DNA of 46,305 nt from the UHGV virus genome UHGV-1364013, one strand, 5' to 3'. The notes under the pieces are model-generated. The model was not told where the DNA came from and ran no database searches. It saw only the letters and a list, made by a program, of their open reading frames with translations. Shown in pieces: positions 7,245 through 25,841 of the stretch. This DNA is from a virus. A program made the position numbers and the translations under genes. Positions within the stretch are counted from its first letter, which is position 1. Every line of letters begins with the position of its first letter.

Positions 7245-7487
7245 CTATCCTATTGCATCCTGTATCTGCATATCAGCGTTTTCAAGCGAGGAAAGAGCAT
7301 CGTCCATAGCACCGATTGCTGTTTGCATAGCTTCCCCGCGCTCACTGGAGTTTAGGGATTCAGGAAGATTTTCAAATGCCTCTAGCTCCTCGTCCCGAAG
7401 TTCCTCCAACTTTTCCATGATGTCAGAAATCTGATCGCTCAATTTCACGAGTTTATCACGTCTGTTCTTGTTCACATGACTCTCCAA
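7245..7487 (-). CDS. Hypothetical acidic coiled-coil protein
   Basis: ORF between two terminators. Confidence 0.4.
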   Translation of the reverse strand: MESHVNKNRRDKLVKLSDQISDIMEKLEELRDEELEAFENLPESLNSSERGEAMQTAIGAMDDALSSLENADMQIQDAIG

Positions 7488-10280: not shown

Positions 10281-10994
10281 CTAGGCTGCCTTGATTCCGA
10301 ACCTTCCAATGAGCCATTCCCTACCGAGTTGCGTCCATCTACGGTGGTAGACAACCTTGTCGTTCTCAAGCACTTCCTGCTTGATGTGGACGTATCCGAG
10401 TTCAGCATATTCTGCGTACAGGACATAGGTTCCGTTCTGCTTGTATTGGATGTGCTGTTCACAGAGGACCCGATTGAAGGCTACGGCACTGCGGAATCCG
10501 AGCTCCTTAGCGATTTCTGTTGTGGTGTACGTCTTGCGGACGTGAGAGAGGATAGCGACGCGCTTTTCAGCATTGACGCGTGCCTCGCGTTCTTCCTTGA
10601 GGGCGGTGAGGAGTTGGATACCGAATTCCGGGTTGTCCAGAATCTGATTGACGACATTCTCGGTGGCGTAGATGCCATGCTTGCGGATAGACGGTACGAC
10701 ATCACCAGCAAGCCACTTTTGGAACGGCAAGGCTGTGGGCTTATCCGATCTGGCAAGGAAAAAGTACAGACCGGGCTCGGAAATGATGAGCATTTCCTGT
10801 TCGCCGCCGGGGGTAGCAATCCGATTGCTACCCTTCCATTCATCCGGTACAGCCTGAAAAACGGTTGTCATGTTTGTGCTGGCATACCCCAACGCTACGG
10901 CCACATCCTTCGCCACAAACCACGGTTCGCCATTGTGTTCGACAACGCGAACCTGCCCAAACTCTTCTTTCTGAAACAACATCAGTTCGTTCAT
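10281..10994 (-). CDS. Bro-N/KilA-C antirepressor-like protein
   Basis: MNELMLFQKEEFGQVRVVEHNGEPWFVAKDVAVALGY is a Bro-N domain. The C-terminal ORF6C/KilAC-like region is present. Confidence 0.6.
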   Translation of the reverse strand: MNELMLFQKEEFGQVRVVEHNGEPWFVAKDVAVALGYASTNMTTVFQAVPDEWKGSNRIATPGGEQEMLIISEPGLYFFLARSDKPTALPFQKWLAGDVVPSIRKHGIYATENVVNQILDNPEFGIQLLTALKEEREARVNAEKRVAILSHVRKTYTTTEIAKELGFRSAVAFNRVLCEQHIQYKQNGTYVLYAEYAELGYVHIKQEVLENDKVVYHRRWTQLGREWLIGRFGIKAA

Positions 10995-11036
10995 GCTTGA
11001 TCCTTGGTTGAGGTTGACGTTCCAAAGTCCCTTTTC

Positions 11037-12801: not shown

Positions 12802-13914
12802 ATGGAACGCGGTTTTTTCAAAATCTATCGAAAAATAGAGGACTCGAAGGCGTGGAGTCGGGGCGCACTGTATCGTGGGCTGATGATTACCCTTCTCCAG
12901 AAGGCGAACTGGAAGCAAGGGTACTTTCACGGGCAAAAAATCCTGCCGGGTCAGCTGGCGTTCAGCGGTGAGTGCCTTGCGGATGAACTCGACATACCCA
13001 GAACTTCGGTTGTTCGCATGTTGCGGAATCTTGAACTTGACGGCTTCCTGACGCGCTCAAACATGAACAACCGATATACGCTTGTAACTATAACAAATTG
13101 GCATAGTTATCAGTCTGTAGAAAACAACTGTGGTCAACCGATGGTCAACCACTGGTCAACCGATGGTCGACCAGTGGACACTATCAAAGAAGGTAAGAAA
13201 GAAAGAATAAATACACCCCCCTTACCCCCCACGGGGGGGAAAGTGTGTGCGGACGAGTACGAACTCAGTTGCGGAACCAGTGCCAACAGCATGGATACCA
13301 GGCCATGTGAGGCCAGTTTGGCCGCAGATGAAATCAAGGCTCAGAGCAGCCTTCAGGCGGGCGGCATGGAACCTAGGCCGTGCTGCCCCCCGAATGGCGA
13401 TGTTACGAACACGTCGGACACCGGTAGCCGCGCCAACAGCATGGACACCAGGCCATGTGAGGCGAAGGGCCGAAAAGCGAAGACACCGCGTATGCCGAAA
13501 GGGGCGGATCTTCCACCGTACACCGAGCAGTTCGAGCGAATTTGGGCCAAATACCCGCGCAAGGATGCCAAGGGGAAGGCTTACAAGGCCTACATGGAGC
13601 TTTTGAAAGCTGGCGCATTGCCGGAAACGGACGACCTCATCGAGCGCATAACGTATCGCAAGTTCGAGCCCGATTGGGAGCGAGAAAACGGGAAATACGT
13701 GCCCTATTTCTCGACATGGCTGCACAATCGTGGCTGGGAAGATGCGGGCTGTTTCAGCGATACGACGCCGGAACAGCGGGCGAGGAATGAAAGGGCTTCC
13801 GCGATTTATGCGAAGTACAACGGCGGGATGTGGAAACCGGGCCTGACTGTCGAGCAGGTGGAGGAGAACTGCGACCGCATGTATGCCGAGCTTGAGGCCG
13901 AGGGGTTGCTGTGA
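12802..13914 (+). CDS. Replication initiator/replisome organiser (O-like N-terminal domain)
   Basis: N-terminus MERGFFKIYRKIEDSKAW...LQKANW is a phage replisome-organiser type. Internal iterons present. SD gggaaagg before the ATG. Confidence 0.5.
   Translation: MERGFFKIYRKIEDSKAWSRGALYRGLMITLLQKANWKQGYFHGQKILPGQLAFSGECLADELDIPRTSVVRMLRNLELDGFLTRSNMNNRYTLVTITNWHSYQSVENNCGQPMVNHWSTDGRPVDTIKEGKKERINTPPLPPTGGKVCADEYELSCGTSANSMDTRPCEASLAADEIKAQSSLQAGGMEPRPCCPPNGDVTNTSDTGSRANSMDTRPCEAKGRKAKTPRMPKGADLPPYTEQFERIWAKYPRKDAKGKAYKAYMELLKAGALPETDDLIERITYRKFEPDWERENGKYVPYFSTWLHNRGWEDAGCFSDTTPEQRARNERASAIYAKYNGGMWKPGLTVEQVEENCDRMYAELEAEGLL
13131..13215. repeat. Four tandem 12-bp iteron-like repeats (GGTCAACCGATG-type) followed by an AT-rich stretch, inside the initiator gene
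   Basis: tggtcaaccgatggtcaaccactggtcaaccgatggtcgaccagtgg, then aagaaggtaagaaagaaagaataaata. Confidence 0.45.
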
Positions 13915-15701
13915 TGGCCGCCCGTTGTCTTGAATCCGCGCTCAGGTTGCAGGCGATGGGATGCAGCGTCATTCCGCTCGTTCCGCAGTCAAAGCGCCCA
14001 TTGGCAAAGGCTCTTCCCGGCGGAAAATGGGAAGAATTTCAGCATAGGATACCCACGCCTGAAGAAATCCGCGGCTGGTTTGAAATCGAGCCCAACGCAA
14101 ATATCGCACTGGTATGCGGCGAAGTTTCGGGCGTGGTGGCGATCGATGTCGACGGGCCGAAGGGTCAAGCGTGGTTCAAGTCTCATATGCCGCCCCCCAA
14201 CTGGTACCAAATGACTTCGGCAAAGGACAAGTTCCACGCGTTCTATCAGCATCCCGGCGGGGGAAGGCGTATTCCTCCGTCCGTCTCGCTGGTGAACGAT
14301 GAAATCGACGTGCGCGGGGATGGCTCCTATGTCGTGTTTGCTCCGTCGATACACCCTTCCGGGGCGGAGTATCGGGCGCATCAGCTTGATGGCTTTTCCG
14401 GCATAGATTCCCTTGTCCCCCTGCCGGATATCCAGCTGGTTCGAGTGGGTGAAGATAAATACGAGGTCAAAGAAGTCCAGGATGGTTCGGCGACGGATCA
14501 TGATGCTGACGTTCAAAAGGGCGGTAGAAATCAGGCGATTACCAGTCTTTGCGGGAGGATGTACGCCAGGGGGCTGCGGGGGGAAGAGGTTTTGCTGTAT
14601 GCGCAGGCATGGAACCGTGCGCACTGCAAACCACCGTTGCCGGACACGGAAGTGAACACGATTGTGCGGAGCATGGCTTCGACACACAGGAACAGAAACC
14701 CACAGAAGCTCAACGCAGGGGGGGTATCCCGCTGGGTTGCCATGTCTTCGGGCGAGTTTTGCATTGCAGATATTTACCGCGATCTTGGCATCCTGAAAGC
14801 CGAAGACAGGGAACTGTGCCAGCAGGAACTTCGGGAGCTTCTTTCTCGTGGGGAAATCGAGCCCTGCGGGAAACGCTCCGGATGGTATCGCAAGCGTGAA
14901 AGCGGATTGGAAGTCATAGACCTTGTACAAGAGGAAACCCCACCGTTGGATTTGTGGCTCCCCTTTGGACTTCACAGAATGTGCTTTGTCCAGCCCCGGA
15001 ATATCATCGTGATCGCTGGCGAAACAAACTCGGGGAAGACGGGCCTGCTTTTCAATTTTTGCTACATGAACAGGCACAAGCACAAGATCCGCTATCTCTC
15101 TTCTGAAATGACGCCGAATGAAATCAGGGGACGCATAGAACGTTTTGGGCTTGCGGTTGAAGAATGGTCGAAATTTACAACGTTTATTCAGCGTTCCAAT
15201 CATTTTCATGATGCCATAGACCCAAATGGCATCAATATTGTTGATTTCTTGGAAGTTTATGAAGATTTTTCGAAAATAGGGGGAGACATCAAAAAGATTT
15301 TTGATCGTCTTCAAAATGGAATCGCAATCATTACGATTCAGAAGAAGAAAGGGGAGATGTTCGGAAGAGGTGGGGAATTCACTCTCGAAAAAGCAAGACT
15401 CGGCATTTCTCTTTTCACGCACGGGCATCTCCCAAACGGCATAGTTGGAAGCATGAAGGTGACCAAATGCAAGAACTATAGATCAGGATTCAATCCTGAA
15501 GGAAGAGAACAGTTCTTTAGGCTGCTTGATGGTTATTTTTATGACTCCTCACCTATTCAGGAGATACCGGATTACAACCCACATTTGGTTTTTTGGGCTG
15601 AAAAAGACAGGAAACGCCTCATTGATTCAATCGGCGATTACTGCAAGCAGATTGCAGAGATTCAAAAGACGCAAGAAATAATAGATTTTTACGGAGAATG
15701 A
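13911..15701 (+). CDS. Bifunctional primase-polymerase (Prim-Pol + PriCT-1) fused to a RecA/DnaB-like P-loop helicase domain
   Basis: SVIPLVPQSKRP...ALVCGEVSGVVAIDVDG is Prim-Pol. AITSLCGRMYARG is PriCT. IIVIAGETNSGKTGLLF is Walker A. The start overlaps the upstream stop (GTGATGG). Confidence 0.65.
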   Translation: MMAARCLESALRLQAMGCSVIPLVPQSKRPLAKALPGGKWEEFQHRIPTPEEIRGWFEIEPNANIALVCGEVSGVVAIDVDGPKGQAWFKSHMPPPNWYQMTSAKDKFHAFYQHPGGGRRIPPSVSLVNDEIDVRGDGSYVVFAPSIHPSGAEYRAHQLDGFSGIDSLVPLPDIQLVRVGEDKYEVKEVQDGSATDHDADVQKGGRNQAITSLCGRMYARGLRGEEVLLYAQAWNRAHCKPPLPDTEVNTIVRSMASTHRNRNPQKLNAGGVSRWVAMSSGEFCIADIYRDLGILKAEDRELCQQELRELLSRGEIEPCGKRSGWYRKRESGLEVIDLVQEETPPLDLWLPFGLHRMCFVQPRNIIVIAGETNSGKTGLLFNFCYMNRHKHKIRYLSSEMTPNEIRGRIERFGLAVEEWSKFTTFIQRSNHFHDAIDPNGINIVDFLEVYEDFSKIGGDIKKIFDRLQNGIAIITIQKKKGEMFGRGGEFTLEKARLGISLFTHGHLPNGIVGSMKVTKCKNYRSGFNPEGREQFFRLLDGYFYDSSPIQEIPDYNPHLVFWAEKDRKRLIDSIGDYCKQIAEIQKTQEIIDFYGE

Positions 15702-15990: not shown

Positions 15991-16079
15991 TGCTCAGTAT
16001 CCGCTGGTTTTTGAAGGGCTGCATCGTATCCGCCGCATGTCATGGGGCTATCGGGCCAAAAACCGCGCATTGGCTTTTG

Positions 16080-16419
16080 TCTGTCCTTGGGCTGGTTCAT
16101 GTTTGAGTGCCCAAGGTATTGTGAAATCTTCGGCCCCGGTGCGTGTGTTGGGGTATTTGACAAAAAGGAGTGTGTGGTCAACAACCCCTGCCTAAAGGCA
16201 GAGGCTTGATAAAAGCCTTGGTTGACTAGCCTCAGACCGCCCAAAAGGCGGACTACGTTGGTTGGGAATGCATAGGCACCGCGGGATGACAATCCTAGTC
16301 CCGCGCTCTGCGGTTCGCGGTTAAAAGCTCTGAGAGGTAGGAGCGGTGCCGCGAACAGGTAAACCCCTTCCAACATTGGCGAAGGATTACAACCGGTCGC
16401 AAGACCGAGGAGACAAATC
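16080..16419 (+). ncRNA. Structured non-coding region (many G.U-compatible hairpins, nested long-range pairing); candidate ncRNA
   Basis: Stems: ccttgggc/gcccaagg; ctgcc-taaa-ggcag; aggctt-gata-aagcct; ccgcc-caaaa-ggcgg; cgcggga/tcccgcg nested inside ggcaccgc/gcggtgcc. No convincing ORF. Confidence 0.35.
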
Positions 16420-16902
16420 TTGAGAGTATTTGTTTTAAACAAACGAGGGCAACCGCTGATGCCGTGCTCACCGGCAAAAGCGATGAGCACATACAGGGAA
16501 GAATCGTTGTCGGAAACACTGCAAGACATGTCCGACCGTTTCGGAAAGCCCTTTGTCCGGCACATGATTGAACGCTTCGCGGGTATAACTCTTATTATTC
16601 CCGTCAAAAGCCGGAAGACGCGGCTAGCTCGGGAATTGTGCACCTTCTTGGGGCAGGATGCCCTTTCCGACTTTCTGCACACCTATGGCGGTACGAGAAT
16701 CTATATCCCCACTTTGCGCCGGGCGAAGATCCGCGCACGGGACATGGACATCAACGCCGAGCGGGACGAGTTGGCTCGCAAGGGGCTGAGTGAAAGAGCG
16801 CTTGTCGCCAGGCTCGCCACGCTGCACGGGCTTTCCGAACGGCAGGTGTGGCGCATTTTAAAACAGCCGAGAACCTCGGACAACAGGGAGGCGGCGTCAT
16901 GA
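16420..16902 (+). CDS. Mor/C-family late transcriptional activator with an N-terminal 20-aa RRXRR/PLMP-like segment (TTG start)
   Basis: C-terminus YGGTRIYIPTLRR...ELARKGLSERALVARLATLHGLSERQVWRILKQ is Mor-like. N-terminus (L)RVFVLNKRGQPLMPCSPAKA. SD gaggag 7 nt before the TTG. Confidence 0.5.
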   Translation: MRVFVLNKRGQPLMPCSPAKAMSTYREESLSETLQDMSDRFGKPFVRHMIERFAGITLIIPVKSRKTRLARELCTFLGQDALSDFLHTYGGTRIYIPTLRRAKIRARDMDINAERDELARKGLSERALVARLATLHGLSERQVWRILKQPRTSDNREAAS

Positions 16903-17330
16903 CGGTCTTACGCTTCACCTTGTCCTGCACGCCCACGGCACAGGCCCGAGTCCGCCACGCCGTCCGCTGCGGGCACAGCGTGGCCTACAAGTCTGCCGGG
17001 CAGAAGAGCGCGGAAGCCGTGCTTGATGATCTTCTTTCGAAGCGCGCCCCGGAAAAGCCGCTGGAAGGCCCTCTCGCGCTCGAATTTATCGCGGGGATGC
17101 CGATACCTGCGTCGACCCCGAAAAAACAACGAGAGGCCATGTTACGCGGCGAAATCGCCCATACGAAGAAGCCGGACCTCGACAACATGGCGAAGCAGCT
17201 CAAAGACGCCATGACGCGCGCGGGGTTCTGGGGGGATGATAAGCAGGTGGTGGCCCTACGCTGTTCAAAACGCTACGCCGCCGTCCCGCATTGGGAGGTA
17301 GCCGTGTACACACAGGAGGAAGCGCAATGA
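16896..17330 (+). CDS. rusA: RusA-family Holliday junction resolvase
   Basis: KKPDLDNMAKQLKDAMTRAGFWGDDKQVVAL...K is the RusA motif. SD gggagg before the ATG. Confidence 0.7.
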   Translation, partial: VMTVLRFTLSCTPTAQARVRHAVRCGHSVAYKSAGQKSAEAVLDDLLSKRAPEKPLEGPLALEFIAGMPIPASTPKKQREAMLRGEIAHTKKPDLDNMAKQLKDAMTRAGFWGDDKQVVALRCSKRYAAVPHWEVAVYTQEEAQ

Positions 17331-17509: not shown

Positions 17510-17762
17510 CATCGACATCACGATACTTGGTGAACAGGCTCTTGCGGCACTCATGCAGCGGCTGTCGGAAGCACGCGGGAAGCACCCTGTTTTCGCGGAG
17601 GGCAAATACCATGCGCTCGGCGTTATCGGGGGGGAGTACCGTGAGCTTGTACACGCCGTTGAGCACGAAACTCCGGAGCGTATCCGCGACGAAGCCCTCG
17701 ATGTAGCTGTGACCGCACTGCGGCTATGGCTTGGGGAACACAAGGTTGGTGCTCATGAGTGA
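17502..17762 (+). CDS. MazG-like nucleotide pyrophosphohydrolase (small)
   Basis: HPVFAEGKYHALGVIGGEYRELVHAVEHE...DEALDVAV is MazG-type. SD gggagg before the GTG. Confidence 0.4.
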   Translation: MHNIDITILGEQALAALMQRLSEARGKHPVFAEGKYHALGVIGGEYRELVHAVEHETPERIRDEALDVAVTALRLWLGEHKVGAHE

Positions 17763-18123
17763 CGTGTGGGTGAGCCAGTTCGAACTGTCAGAGGCCATCG
17801 GTGACGTGGGGGCGGTCATCCTCTGCGCACAGTGCGGTGGATGTTCATACTTTATCCCCCGGAAGCCCACAGGTTTTCTTCTGGAGTTGCTTGGTCGGCA
17901 GCGTATGGCGGCCCTCTGCACCGAATTTGGGGGGATGCAGATCGTCGTGCCCAACCTGCGCCGTGGTGAACCGTTCAAAGGACGTATCCTGTCCCGTCTG
18001 GAAGCAGGGGAGAAGCCGGACGCCATCGCCGAAGCCCTTGGCGTGACCACCAGGTACGTCCGTCGGCTCAAAAAGCAGCTTTGCGGGAACCCGGAACCAC
18101 AGCAGCAATATCGGCTGTTGTAG
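17755..18123 (+). CDS. Mor/C-family late transcriptional activator (second paralogue)
   Basis: EFGGMQIVVPNLRRGEPFKGRILSRLEAGEKPDAIAEALGVTTRYVRRLKKQL. Confidence 0.55.
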   Translation: MSDVWVSQFELSEAIGDVGAVILCAQCGGCSYFIPRKPTGFLLELLGRQRMAALCTEFGGMQIVVPNLRRGEPFKGRILSRLEAGEKPDAIAEALGVTTRYVRRLKKQLCGNPEPQQQYRLL

Positions 18124-18188: not shown

Positions 18189-18575
18189 ATGGCTGTTCTT
18201 CCCTTGCGTCACTTCTCCCCGGTCGAGTTCCGCTGCAAGTGCGGGTGCGGCGCGGGCATGGAGAAGATGGACGCCGACCTGCTCCAGATGCTCGACGAGG
18301 CCCGCGATCTGGCGGGCATCCCGTTCCCCCTTTCTTCCGCCTACCGCTGCCCGAAGCACAACAAGGCGGTCGGCGGTGTGCCCACCTCAGCGCACACTCG
18401 CGGCTATGCCGTGGATATCCGCTGTGTGGATTCCCATTCCCGTTTCGTCATGCTGCAAGCCCTGCTTGAGGCCGGATTCCGGCGCATCGAGCTGGCTCCG
18501 ACATGGATTCATGTGGACAACGACCCCGACAAGCCGCGCGACGTGGCCTTTTACCAGCATGGAGGCAAGTACTGA
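18189..18575 (+). CDS. Endolysin, peptidase M15 (L-Ala-D-Glu/D-Ala-D-Ala peptidase type)
   Basis: FSPVEFRCKCGCG...SAYRCPKHNKAVGGVPTSAHTRGYAVDI...HVD is the Peptidase_M15 zinc-site signature. Confidence 0.7.
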   Translation: MAVLPLRHFSPVEFRCKCGCGAGMEKMDADLLQMLDEARDLAGIPFPLSSAYRCPKHNKAVGGVPTSAHTRGYAVDIRCVDSHSRFVMLQALLEAGFRRIELAPTWIHVDNDPDKPRDVAFYQHGGKY

Positions 18576-19626: not shown

Positions 19627-19670
19627 CCAGCGCGCCGTAAAACCTCTCCCTTCAGGGGGAGGATATAAAG
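19627..19670. repeat. Solo IS605 left-end (LE) hairpin copy after TTAT: ccagcgcgccgtaaaacctctcccttcagggggaggatataaag
   Basis: About 85% identical to the LE of the full IS at 23742-23790. Its ggagga provides the SD for terS. Confidence 0.55.
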
Positions 19671-25450: not shown

Positions 25451-25841
25451 AGCCGCTACCGATAGGAATCCCCCGACTTTAGGCGGGGGAGGATGTCAAC
25501 CCAGTACTATGTAGCCTGCTGTAATGGTAGACTATTTTTTTTGAAATCGTAACCCCTCCGTACCTTGACTTCTTCCAGCTTTTGTGCTGTTCTTTTTTCA
25601 CGGTGCTTCAAAACACCTTCGCTGGCGGTAGCCAACCCCGAAACGTGGCCTTTTTTGTGCCCTGTCAAGACTTGTATCCTCTTGGCTGTGGTGTATCCTA
25701 CGGACATTGACTCCGGGTGTGGGCTAATACAATACCGATTCGTCGGGAATATGCCCGCTGTCCAGCGACAGTTTTGAGCACCCGGAGTTTTGCTATTTTG
25801 GCGGCTCCAATGAAAGGTGTCCGACATCCATGCACCCGAAC

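Follow-up and report, generated by a model that had tools for sequence, protein, structure and literature searches.

A probable IscB transposon remnant with an intact omega RNA scaffold, fused in frame to the mor gene of a Bilophila wadsworthia phage

HEARO RNA is reportedly the omega RNA of IscB. ISC transposons, in which IscB is found, have a 5'-GTCA terminus and subterminal hairpins and insert at N/ATGA (the slash marks the insertion point here and below) without duplication of the target (Kapitonov, Makarova and Koonin, 2016; PMC4810608). A tnpA is found in the neighbourhood of no more than about 1.5% of iscB genes, and the Rfam model of the RNA, RF02033, misses structural elements that lie downstream of it (Meers et al., 2023). 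Here, we describe such a locus in the virus genome UHGV-1364013, of which one stretch of 46,305 nucleotides was analysed and is called the window in the following. We read positions 16177-16482 (+) of the window as the stranded remnant of an ISC/IscB element (IS200/IS605 superfamily) fused in frame to mor, the gene of a Mor/C-family late-gene activator, and put the probability of this reading at roughly 0.87. The site is polymorphic for the insertion and its borders are exact, the omega RNA scaffold is intact, the nuclease gene and the far transposon end have been lost, and the reading frame of what is left continues into mor. The stub is a natural example of the decay of a known kind of element and not a new system.

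An initial annotation of this DNA, made from the letters of the window, had suggested that the RNA and first codons of a decayed IscB/HEARO-type element survive here, joined to a regulator of late genes, and the covariance model, the N-terminus of the fused protein, the empty sites of relatives and the Mor homologues all favour that proposal. Related loci from viral contigs are referred to below by numbers with the prefix L.

Insertion polymorphism at the mor start codon

Comparison of filled with empty sites places the 306-nt insert of the window between AAGGAGTGTGTG and ATGAGC, with no target-site duplication. Its 5' border (16176/16177) coincides with position 1 of the HEARO model (GTCAAC), and the target is N/ATGA, the ATG being the start codon of mor; the window copy has both the 5'-GTCA terminus and the duplication-free target of an ISC transposon. 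With the Mor part as query, 17 loci were retrieved from viral contigs. In 10 of 11 close relatives, the Mor proteins of which are 96-99% identical, ...GA(C/T)GAAAAGGAGTGTGTG abuts the mor start ATGAGCAC directly, and the empty site ...AAGGAGTGTGTG/ATGAGC... is present in 11 phage or prophage sequences of Bilophila wadsworthia (L001-5, L007-11 and L130). This bacterium was identified as the host by a genome scan, and the site is empty in the prophage of strain ATCC 49260. A GenBank phage search with a 4.7-kb query around the site matched just two unannotated gut contigs, and these over the insert alone.

The insert (16177-16482, +) is absent from these 11 related sequences and 94-96% identical to the elements L052-L055, which are located elsewhere. 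The DNA immediately upstream of the insertion point (16108-16176, +) is native to the phage, as it is conserved in the empty-site relatives and adjoins the mor ATG there. Its last 16 nt, CAAAAAGGAGTGTGTG (16161-16176, +), are flanking target DNA at the guide position, outside the element. The initial annotation had described about 340 nt of highly structured non-coding DNA starting at 16080; the structured region is real and lies on the plus strand, but it measures approximately 232 nt (16177-16407), and 16080-16176 is native phage DNA that is possibly coding.

At the identical position, L006 (on the same contig as L028) carries a 695-nt insert. In it, the scaffold and 38 codons of iscB are followed by a frameshift and an internal deletion, after which come 115 C-terminal codons and the far end. 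Between L006 and the window the flanks agree at 98.8-99%, whereas the shared part of the element is 85% identical. The L006 element resembles the intact L056 lineage and the window element the L052-L055 lineage. With flanks at 99%, elements at 85% and different intact lineages, a single ancestral insertion common to the window and L006 is unlikely; judging from these alignments, either two element lineages may have reached the same N/ATGA at mor, or recombination may have swapped one for the other.

Omega RNA scaffold and the iscB stub

The HEARO/IscB omega RNA scaffold of the window is intact and of full length. Rfam RF02033 covers model positions 1-211 of 211 at 16177-16393 (+), with the transposon end as its 5'-GTCAA, at 141.1 bits (E 1.7e-29) against a gathering score of 83. 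This is the top score among the 15 copies that were scored, including those beside intact IscB genes (138.3 and 123.9 bits). Folding of the two strands gave z = -4.22 for the plus strand, with 0 of 200 shuffles as good, and z = -2.68 for the minus strand; several conserved G-U pairs are specific to the strand, in agreement with the plus-strand-only pairs noticed in the initial annotation. The RNAalifold consensus of 19 distinct element copies comprises 58 pairs, 18 of them with compensatory double changes. These include an extra 3' stem-loop beyond the Rfam model (CGGTC-GCAA-GACCG, 16394-16407, +), in which four pairs show compensatory changes across copies, e.g., GGCC/GGCC, GACC/GGTC and AGCC/GGCT. 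The long-range helix ggcaccgc...gcggtgcc that had also been proposed was not recovered, being part of neither the Rfam consensus, the RNAalifold consensus nor the minimum free energy fold, and its 3' arm pairs with GGTTCGCGG instead; both arms are invariant in the 19 copies.

In the same alignment the 16 columns of the guide position are unconserved, and homology starts sharply at GTCAA (16177). When the scaffold of the window is aligned with those of four intact relatives, one private substitution is seen, at 16289 within a loop, and all pairs are preserved at the variable positions. The RNA is thus undecayed, but the event is recent, and selection on the RNA is unproven on this count: with one private substitution the stub is too young for selective retention to be demonstrable. 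No plus-strand promoter-like site for the omega RNA was found.

Downstream of the scaffold lies the translation-initiation region of IscB, with a Shine-Dalgarno (SD) sequence GAGGAG at 16407-16412, a 7-nt spacer and a TTG at 16420-16422 (together 16407-16422, +). It is as in the intact relatives, where the same SD and TTG precede intact 420-430-aa IscB open reading frames (ORFs) in L044, L051 and L052-L056. The TTG opens a 160-codon ORF (16420-16902), (L)RVFVLNKRGQPLMPCSPAKA, that continues as a Mor-family protein. Its first part, iscB codons 1-21 (LRVFVLNKRGQPLMPCSPAKA; 16420-16482, +), is the PLMP/RRXRR N-terminus of a gene truncated after codon 21, as recognised by Pfam RRXRR and tblastn. 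The fusion of such an N-terminus to Mor had been noticed in the initial annotation and is borne out here: residues 3-23 of the fused ORF align to positions 1-21 of the RRXRR profile with an E value of 0.0019, a match that is below the cutoff because just 21 residues remain, and over the 21 codons the identity to the intact IscB of L051 (its residues 1-21) is 81% (tblastn).

With a 428-aa IscB as tblastn query, residues 1-21 alone were matched in the window, and no other IscB-like coding sequence was found there. The window ORF has neither RuvC nor the arginine-rich bridge helix, HNH or C-terminal domains and is therefore not an IscB. The far transposon end (...GGAGG..CCTCC CCTGC..GCAGG TTTCCGCGCCGAATTTCT) is also absent from the window, so that the stub, having no far-end hairpins, is no longer a mobile element. 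Nor does it have the two ends of a PATE (a protein-less derivative of IS200/IS605 elements), one end being missing; both are present in the mini-elements L018, L020, L021, L035 and L047.

The remainder of the fused ORF is mor itself (16483-16902, +; 139 aa), in frame with the iscB stub. Pfam Mor (PF08765) matches residues 69-154 of the fused ORF at 40.2 bits against a threshold of 24.9, with a hint of HTH_23 at 127-150. No IscB-like N-terminus was found on the Mor homologues: the 24 database homologues with PF08765 all cover just the 139-aa Mor part, and 10 close relatives begin at the ATG. A routine occurrence of this N-terminus on Mor proteins, which the initial annotation had considered decisive against a transposon origin, is therefore not what we see.

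Related elements and their insertion sites

With a motif inside the RNA as query 34 more viral loci were collected, and with the IscB N-terminus 78. At four other sites (L052-L055) elements 94-96% identical to the window over 306 nt run on into intact 430-aa IscB genes, which cover RRXRR positions 1-174 of 174 and contain HNH, and then into a far end with two hairpins. L055 and L056 share contig 3300045988_149840, a mosaic relative of the window phage, which has two intact IscB elements, from both lineages that left remnants at mor. The initial annotation had raised the possibility of a full IscB at this place in related phages. Intact 430-aa genes do exist in gut phages, but at other sites, and in the related phages the mor site is empty or, in L006, holds the longer remnant.

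Mini-elements of 320-360 nt with both ends and no ORF were found at L018, L020, L021, L035, L045, L047 and other loci. One variant with an internal deletion is present at at least three sites and hence moves as a PATE-like unit. The census of mini-elements by the motif inside the RNA is biased toward RNA retention, whereas one by the far-end motif is unbiased in this regard. The latter yielded a 5'-truncated scaffold (L040), a scaffold cut at about nt 76 (L151) and a far end alone (L147), as well as several mini-elements with a complete scaffold; as L040, L147 and L151 are broken at different places, the breakpoints of decay vary. The contig of mini-element L035 also has, at 7399-7484 (-), a match to the Rfam C4 antisense RNA (RF01695, a P1/P7-type immunity RNA) with 59.4 bits against 45. 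Dozens of more distant IscB genes, 62-70% identical over the N-terminus, are found on large gut viral contigs of 30-270 kb (L065-L129); several of these contigs have two IscB copies, and their far ends are mostly followed by ATGA.

The elements of this clade are found preferentially at gene start codons and are co-oriented with the gene, which agrees with the published orientation bias (Meers et al., 2023). We compared 51 distinct insertion sites in which the far end is followed by an ATG; the tetranucleotide is ATGA in 49 of them. At 39 of the 51 an ORF of 50 codons or more comes next, compared with 34% of control ATGA sites (p 8e-10), and an SD-like motif is situated 3-12 nt before the insertion point at 12 of the 23 sites with a known upstream flank, compared with 16% of controls (p 5e-5). 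The preference probably exists because phage genomes tolerate little else.

In L052-L056 and L064 the IscB ORF lacks its own stop codon and reads through the far-end hairpins to a TGA that overlaps the target ATG (ATGA/TGATG), examples being ...GAATTTCT/ATGA and ...GATTTTTG/ATGA. The IscB stop of other lineages (L044, L051 and L058) lies 27-51 nt before the end of the element, and the mini-element L018 keeps a 24-codon frame from the IscB TTG to TGATG. Overlapping stop and start codons are the classic arrangement for termination-reinitiation. The overlap suggests translational coupling that would make the insertion non-disruptive. In the literature consulted, we found no link between IscB and translational coupling and no mention of a start-codon preference or a stop overlap for these elements; the N/ATGA target itself is published. 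The start-codon enrichment, the overlap of the stop codon with the target ATG and the reciprocal orphan guides in siblings described below are new details.

Decay of the element, alternative explanations and comparison with known systems

The history that we propose begins with the insertion of an ISC/IscB element at N/ATGA, the mor start codon, in a Bilophila wadsworthia phage. The omega RNA end (5'-GTCAA...) would have faced upstream, and the 16 nt of phage DNA ahead of it would thereby have become the guide. A later deletion may then have removed everything from iscB codon 22 through the far end and joined codon 21 in frame to the mor ATG. Lacking far-end hairpins, the stub could presumably not be moved by a Y1 transposase, and lacking IscB it should be inert unless another element supplies a compatible IscB. 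The RNA would be made just by read-through within the mor leader.

At empty sites, the mor SD (AAGGAG) lies 6 nt before the ATG. In the window it is found at 16165-16170, pushed 306 nt away, and the ATG at 16483 has no SD, while the SD and TTG of IscB are intact and in frame with mor. Given the distance of its own SD, translation of Mor most likely begins at the TTG of IscB with the help of the IscB SD, which would yield a fusion protein. Mor would then gain 21 residues from the TTG, which is the likeliest case, or 8 from the in-frame ATG at 16459, or initiation may occur at 16483. In the intact lineage the downstream gene would be kept expressed by coupling because the IscB TGA overlaps the target ATG; the window deletion would have replaced translational coupling by direct fusion.

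Several observations do not sit easily with this history. The right end of the deletion falls within 1 nt of the element/target boundary, which a random deletion would not predict, and at 16482 the window has a G in place of the A shared by the four intact relatives. Abortive copy-repair, or an aberrant cut by the transposase at the far end, could account for such an endpoint. A search for the exact fusion junction elsewhere gave 0 matches in viral contigs and 6 in metagenomes, all of them unrelated chance matches, and hence both the viability of the fusion allele and its freedom from assembly error rest on one occurrence. Moreover, if the 69 nt before the insertion point are coding, the element may sit inside a longer mor ORF and not between SD and start. 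These 69 nt are open in the mor frame in 12 of 13 relatives, 6 of their 10 variable columns are at codon position 3, and gene callers extend the Mor of empty-site relatives upstream (...CPRYCEIFGPGACAGVFDEKECV/MSTYREE). The peptide specified by the upstream frame, which has ATGs at 16042 and 16099, is rich in Cys (CPRYCEIFGPGACxGVFDxKECV); in the window this frame runs 11 codons into the omega RNA before a TGA at 16207-16209. This is suggestive, not decisive, of an in-frame Cys-rich N-terminal extension of Mor (long isoform); more distant Mor homologues are 139 aa long. If the long isoform exists, the element split mor at an internal Met codon.

The guide invites a further explanation. It matches the vacant mor site plus ATGA in 12 loci from related phages; in the vacant sites of siblings 14-15 of its 16 positions agree, with mismatches only distal to the target-adjacent motif (TAM), and the TAM ATGAGC is present (target sequence GACGAAAAGGAGTGTGTG followed by ATGAGC). 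No second match to the 16-nt guide was found within the window. Reciprocally, positions 10989-11014 (-) of the window are a vacant target of the L018/L008 mini-element (contig 3300045988_162154), with a 20/20 guide match at 11014-10995 and the TAM ATGAAC at 10994-10989. The latter is the start of a Bro-N-like gene, the ORF of which begins MNELMLFQKEEFGQVRVVEHNGEPWFVAKDV, and in the alignment L018 has a 315-nt insert exactly at this start. It might be imagined that the orphan omega RNA is loaded by the IscB of an intact element, one from the same lineage, in a co-resident or co-infecting phage, and that the complex would then cut vacant mor sites and cause non-restorative homing of the stub or exclusion of competitors. 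We regard this as unlikely. The sibling sites offer target and TAM, the window is itself vacant at the site of another orphan guide, homing into co-infecting phages has been discussed (review PMC13565253), and the mosaic contig 3300045988_149840 would have intact IscB of both lineages to offer, whereas the window has none. The scaffold is as intact as those beside intact IscB genes (141 bits versus 138 and 124) and no pair is broken, yet its intactness reflects youth, as seen from the one private substitution, and not demonstrated selection. The RNA-unbiased search, with truncated or missing omega RNA in L040, L147 and L151, fits random decay, and the data searched contain the window allele just once. 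A wider scheme, decidedly unlikely in our opinion, would take the reciprocal orphan guides and the intact nucleases of a third relative, split across genomes, as inter-phage RNA-guided homing or marker exclusion by a family adapted to start codons (TAM ATGA), in which coupling would render insertion harmless.

Co-option of the RNA, also named in the initial annotation, would make it a cis-acting mor leader that controls, for example, transcript stability, attenuation or translation initiation, and we hold this to be very improbable. The RNA is now the 5' leader of an essential late-gene activator, supplies the only nearby ribosome-binding site of mor and has no separate promoter-like site on its strand; 10 of 12 closely related phages nevertheless express mor without the element, the arrangement was seen once, and the fold is the one typical of the transposon family, without any change specific to mor, the single private substitution lying in a loop. 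That the iscB-mor junction is an assembly artefact, generated from a repeat in co-assembled related phages, is extremely improbable: the element is multi-copy in the phage population and the junction was seen once, but its two sides share at most 1-2 nt and thus offer no repeat for a k-mer mis-join, the left border is a canonical element end at a verified target, and relatives align collinearly at 99% identity on either side. The chance that the region is a replication origin or the N-terminus an ordinary extension of Mor is practically negligible. A Prim-Pol/helicase gene is indeed nearby (13911-15701; Pfam Prim-Pol, PriCT_1), and the initial annotation had entertained an origin on that account, but relatives with 98.8%-identical upstream DNA that includes the helicase gene lack the 306-nt segment, which excludes it. 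An ordinary extension is ruled out as relatives start at the ATG and homologues cover the Mor part alone, and the RNA belongs, over its full length, to a curated family of transposon RNAs. A stranded ISC/IscB remnant fused to mor accordingly remains our preferred reading.

Some other features of the window were recorded. Small ORFs lie between the Prim-Pol/helicase gene and the stretch without a convincing ORF ahead of mor. A RusA gene (16899-17330) overlaps the mor stop codon, and 0.8 kb downstream of mor there is a second, weaker Mor-like/HTH_23 gene (17731-18123, +), followed by a peptidase M15 endolysin (18189-18575) and a terminase-small-like ORF starting at 19670. In the structural/late region, positions 25711-25795 (+) match the full model of the Rfam sRNA-Xcc1 (RF02221) at 53.4 bits against a gathering score of 53. 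Two copies of a GC-rich palindrome, TTGACATCCTCCCCCG...CGGGGGAGGATGTCAA, at 2534-2574 and 2718-2750 resemble the IscB subterminal hairpin CCCCTGCCTGAAGGCAGGGG, and L056 contains, outside its IscB element, 41 nt that are 100% identical to the first copy; these palindromes could be operators, terminators or transposon-end relics.

The series of empty site, intact elements, mini-elements, 695-nt product and 306-nt stub shows how IscB enters phages and decays in them, and it indicates that a host gene can come to use the translation-initiation region of a transposon. The strong start-codon insertion bias of this gut-phage IscB clade, and the placement of the IscB stop on the target ATG in one lineage, could be of use to both the transposon and the genome-editing fields. 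Guides that persist without a nuclease make action in trans between co-infecting phages directly testable.

Among described systems, the HEARO RNA RF02033 is matched over its full length, with the same helices and pseudoknot. As in that system, an IscB start codon lies downstream in the same orientation, and the 5' end of the RNA coincides with that of the transposon, ahead of which flanking DNA provides a variable guide; the window differs in that just 21 codons of the nuclease gene are left and that the RNA leads an unrelated phage gene. The ISC transposons (PMC4810608) share the 5'-GTCA terminus, the insertion 5' of ATGA without duplication, the hairpins at both ends of intact copies and the mostly non-autonomous state. 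Unlike them, the window copy retains neither the far end nor more than a small part of iscB; in addition, the ATGA used by this phage clade is preferentially a gene start codon, and the IscB stop of the window lineage overlaps the ATG. The sibling mini-elements, having both ends and no ORF, are comparable to the PATEs (Meers et al., 2023, Extended Data Fig. 2), but the window copy is without one end, and the PATE-like siblings usually retain the whole omega RNA. GstIscB of ISGst recognises the TAM TTCAT, the reverse complement of ATGAA, and its element likewise points in the direction of the neighbouring gene and depends on transcription that reads through into it (Meers et al., 2023); it resides, intact and active, in a Geobacillus chromosome and not in Bilophila phages. 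Finally, phage homing endonucleases and marker exclusion (PMC13565253) would be a functional analogy for a guide acting in trans, with a filled allele directing the cleavage of vacant alleles, although here the recognition would be RNA-guided and the nuclease would be encoded on another genome.

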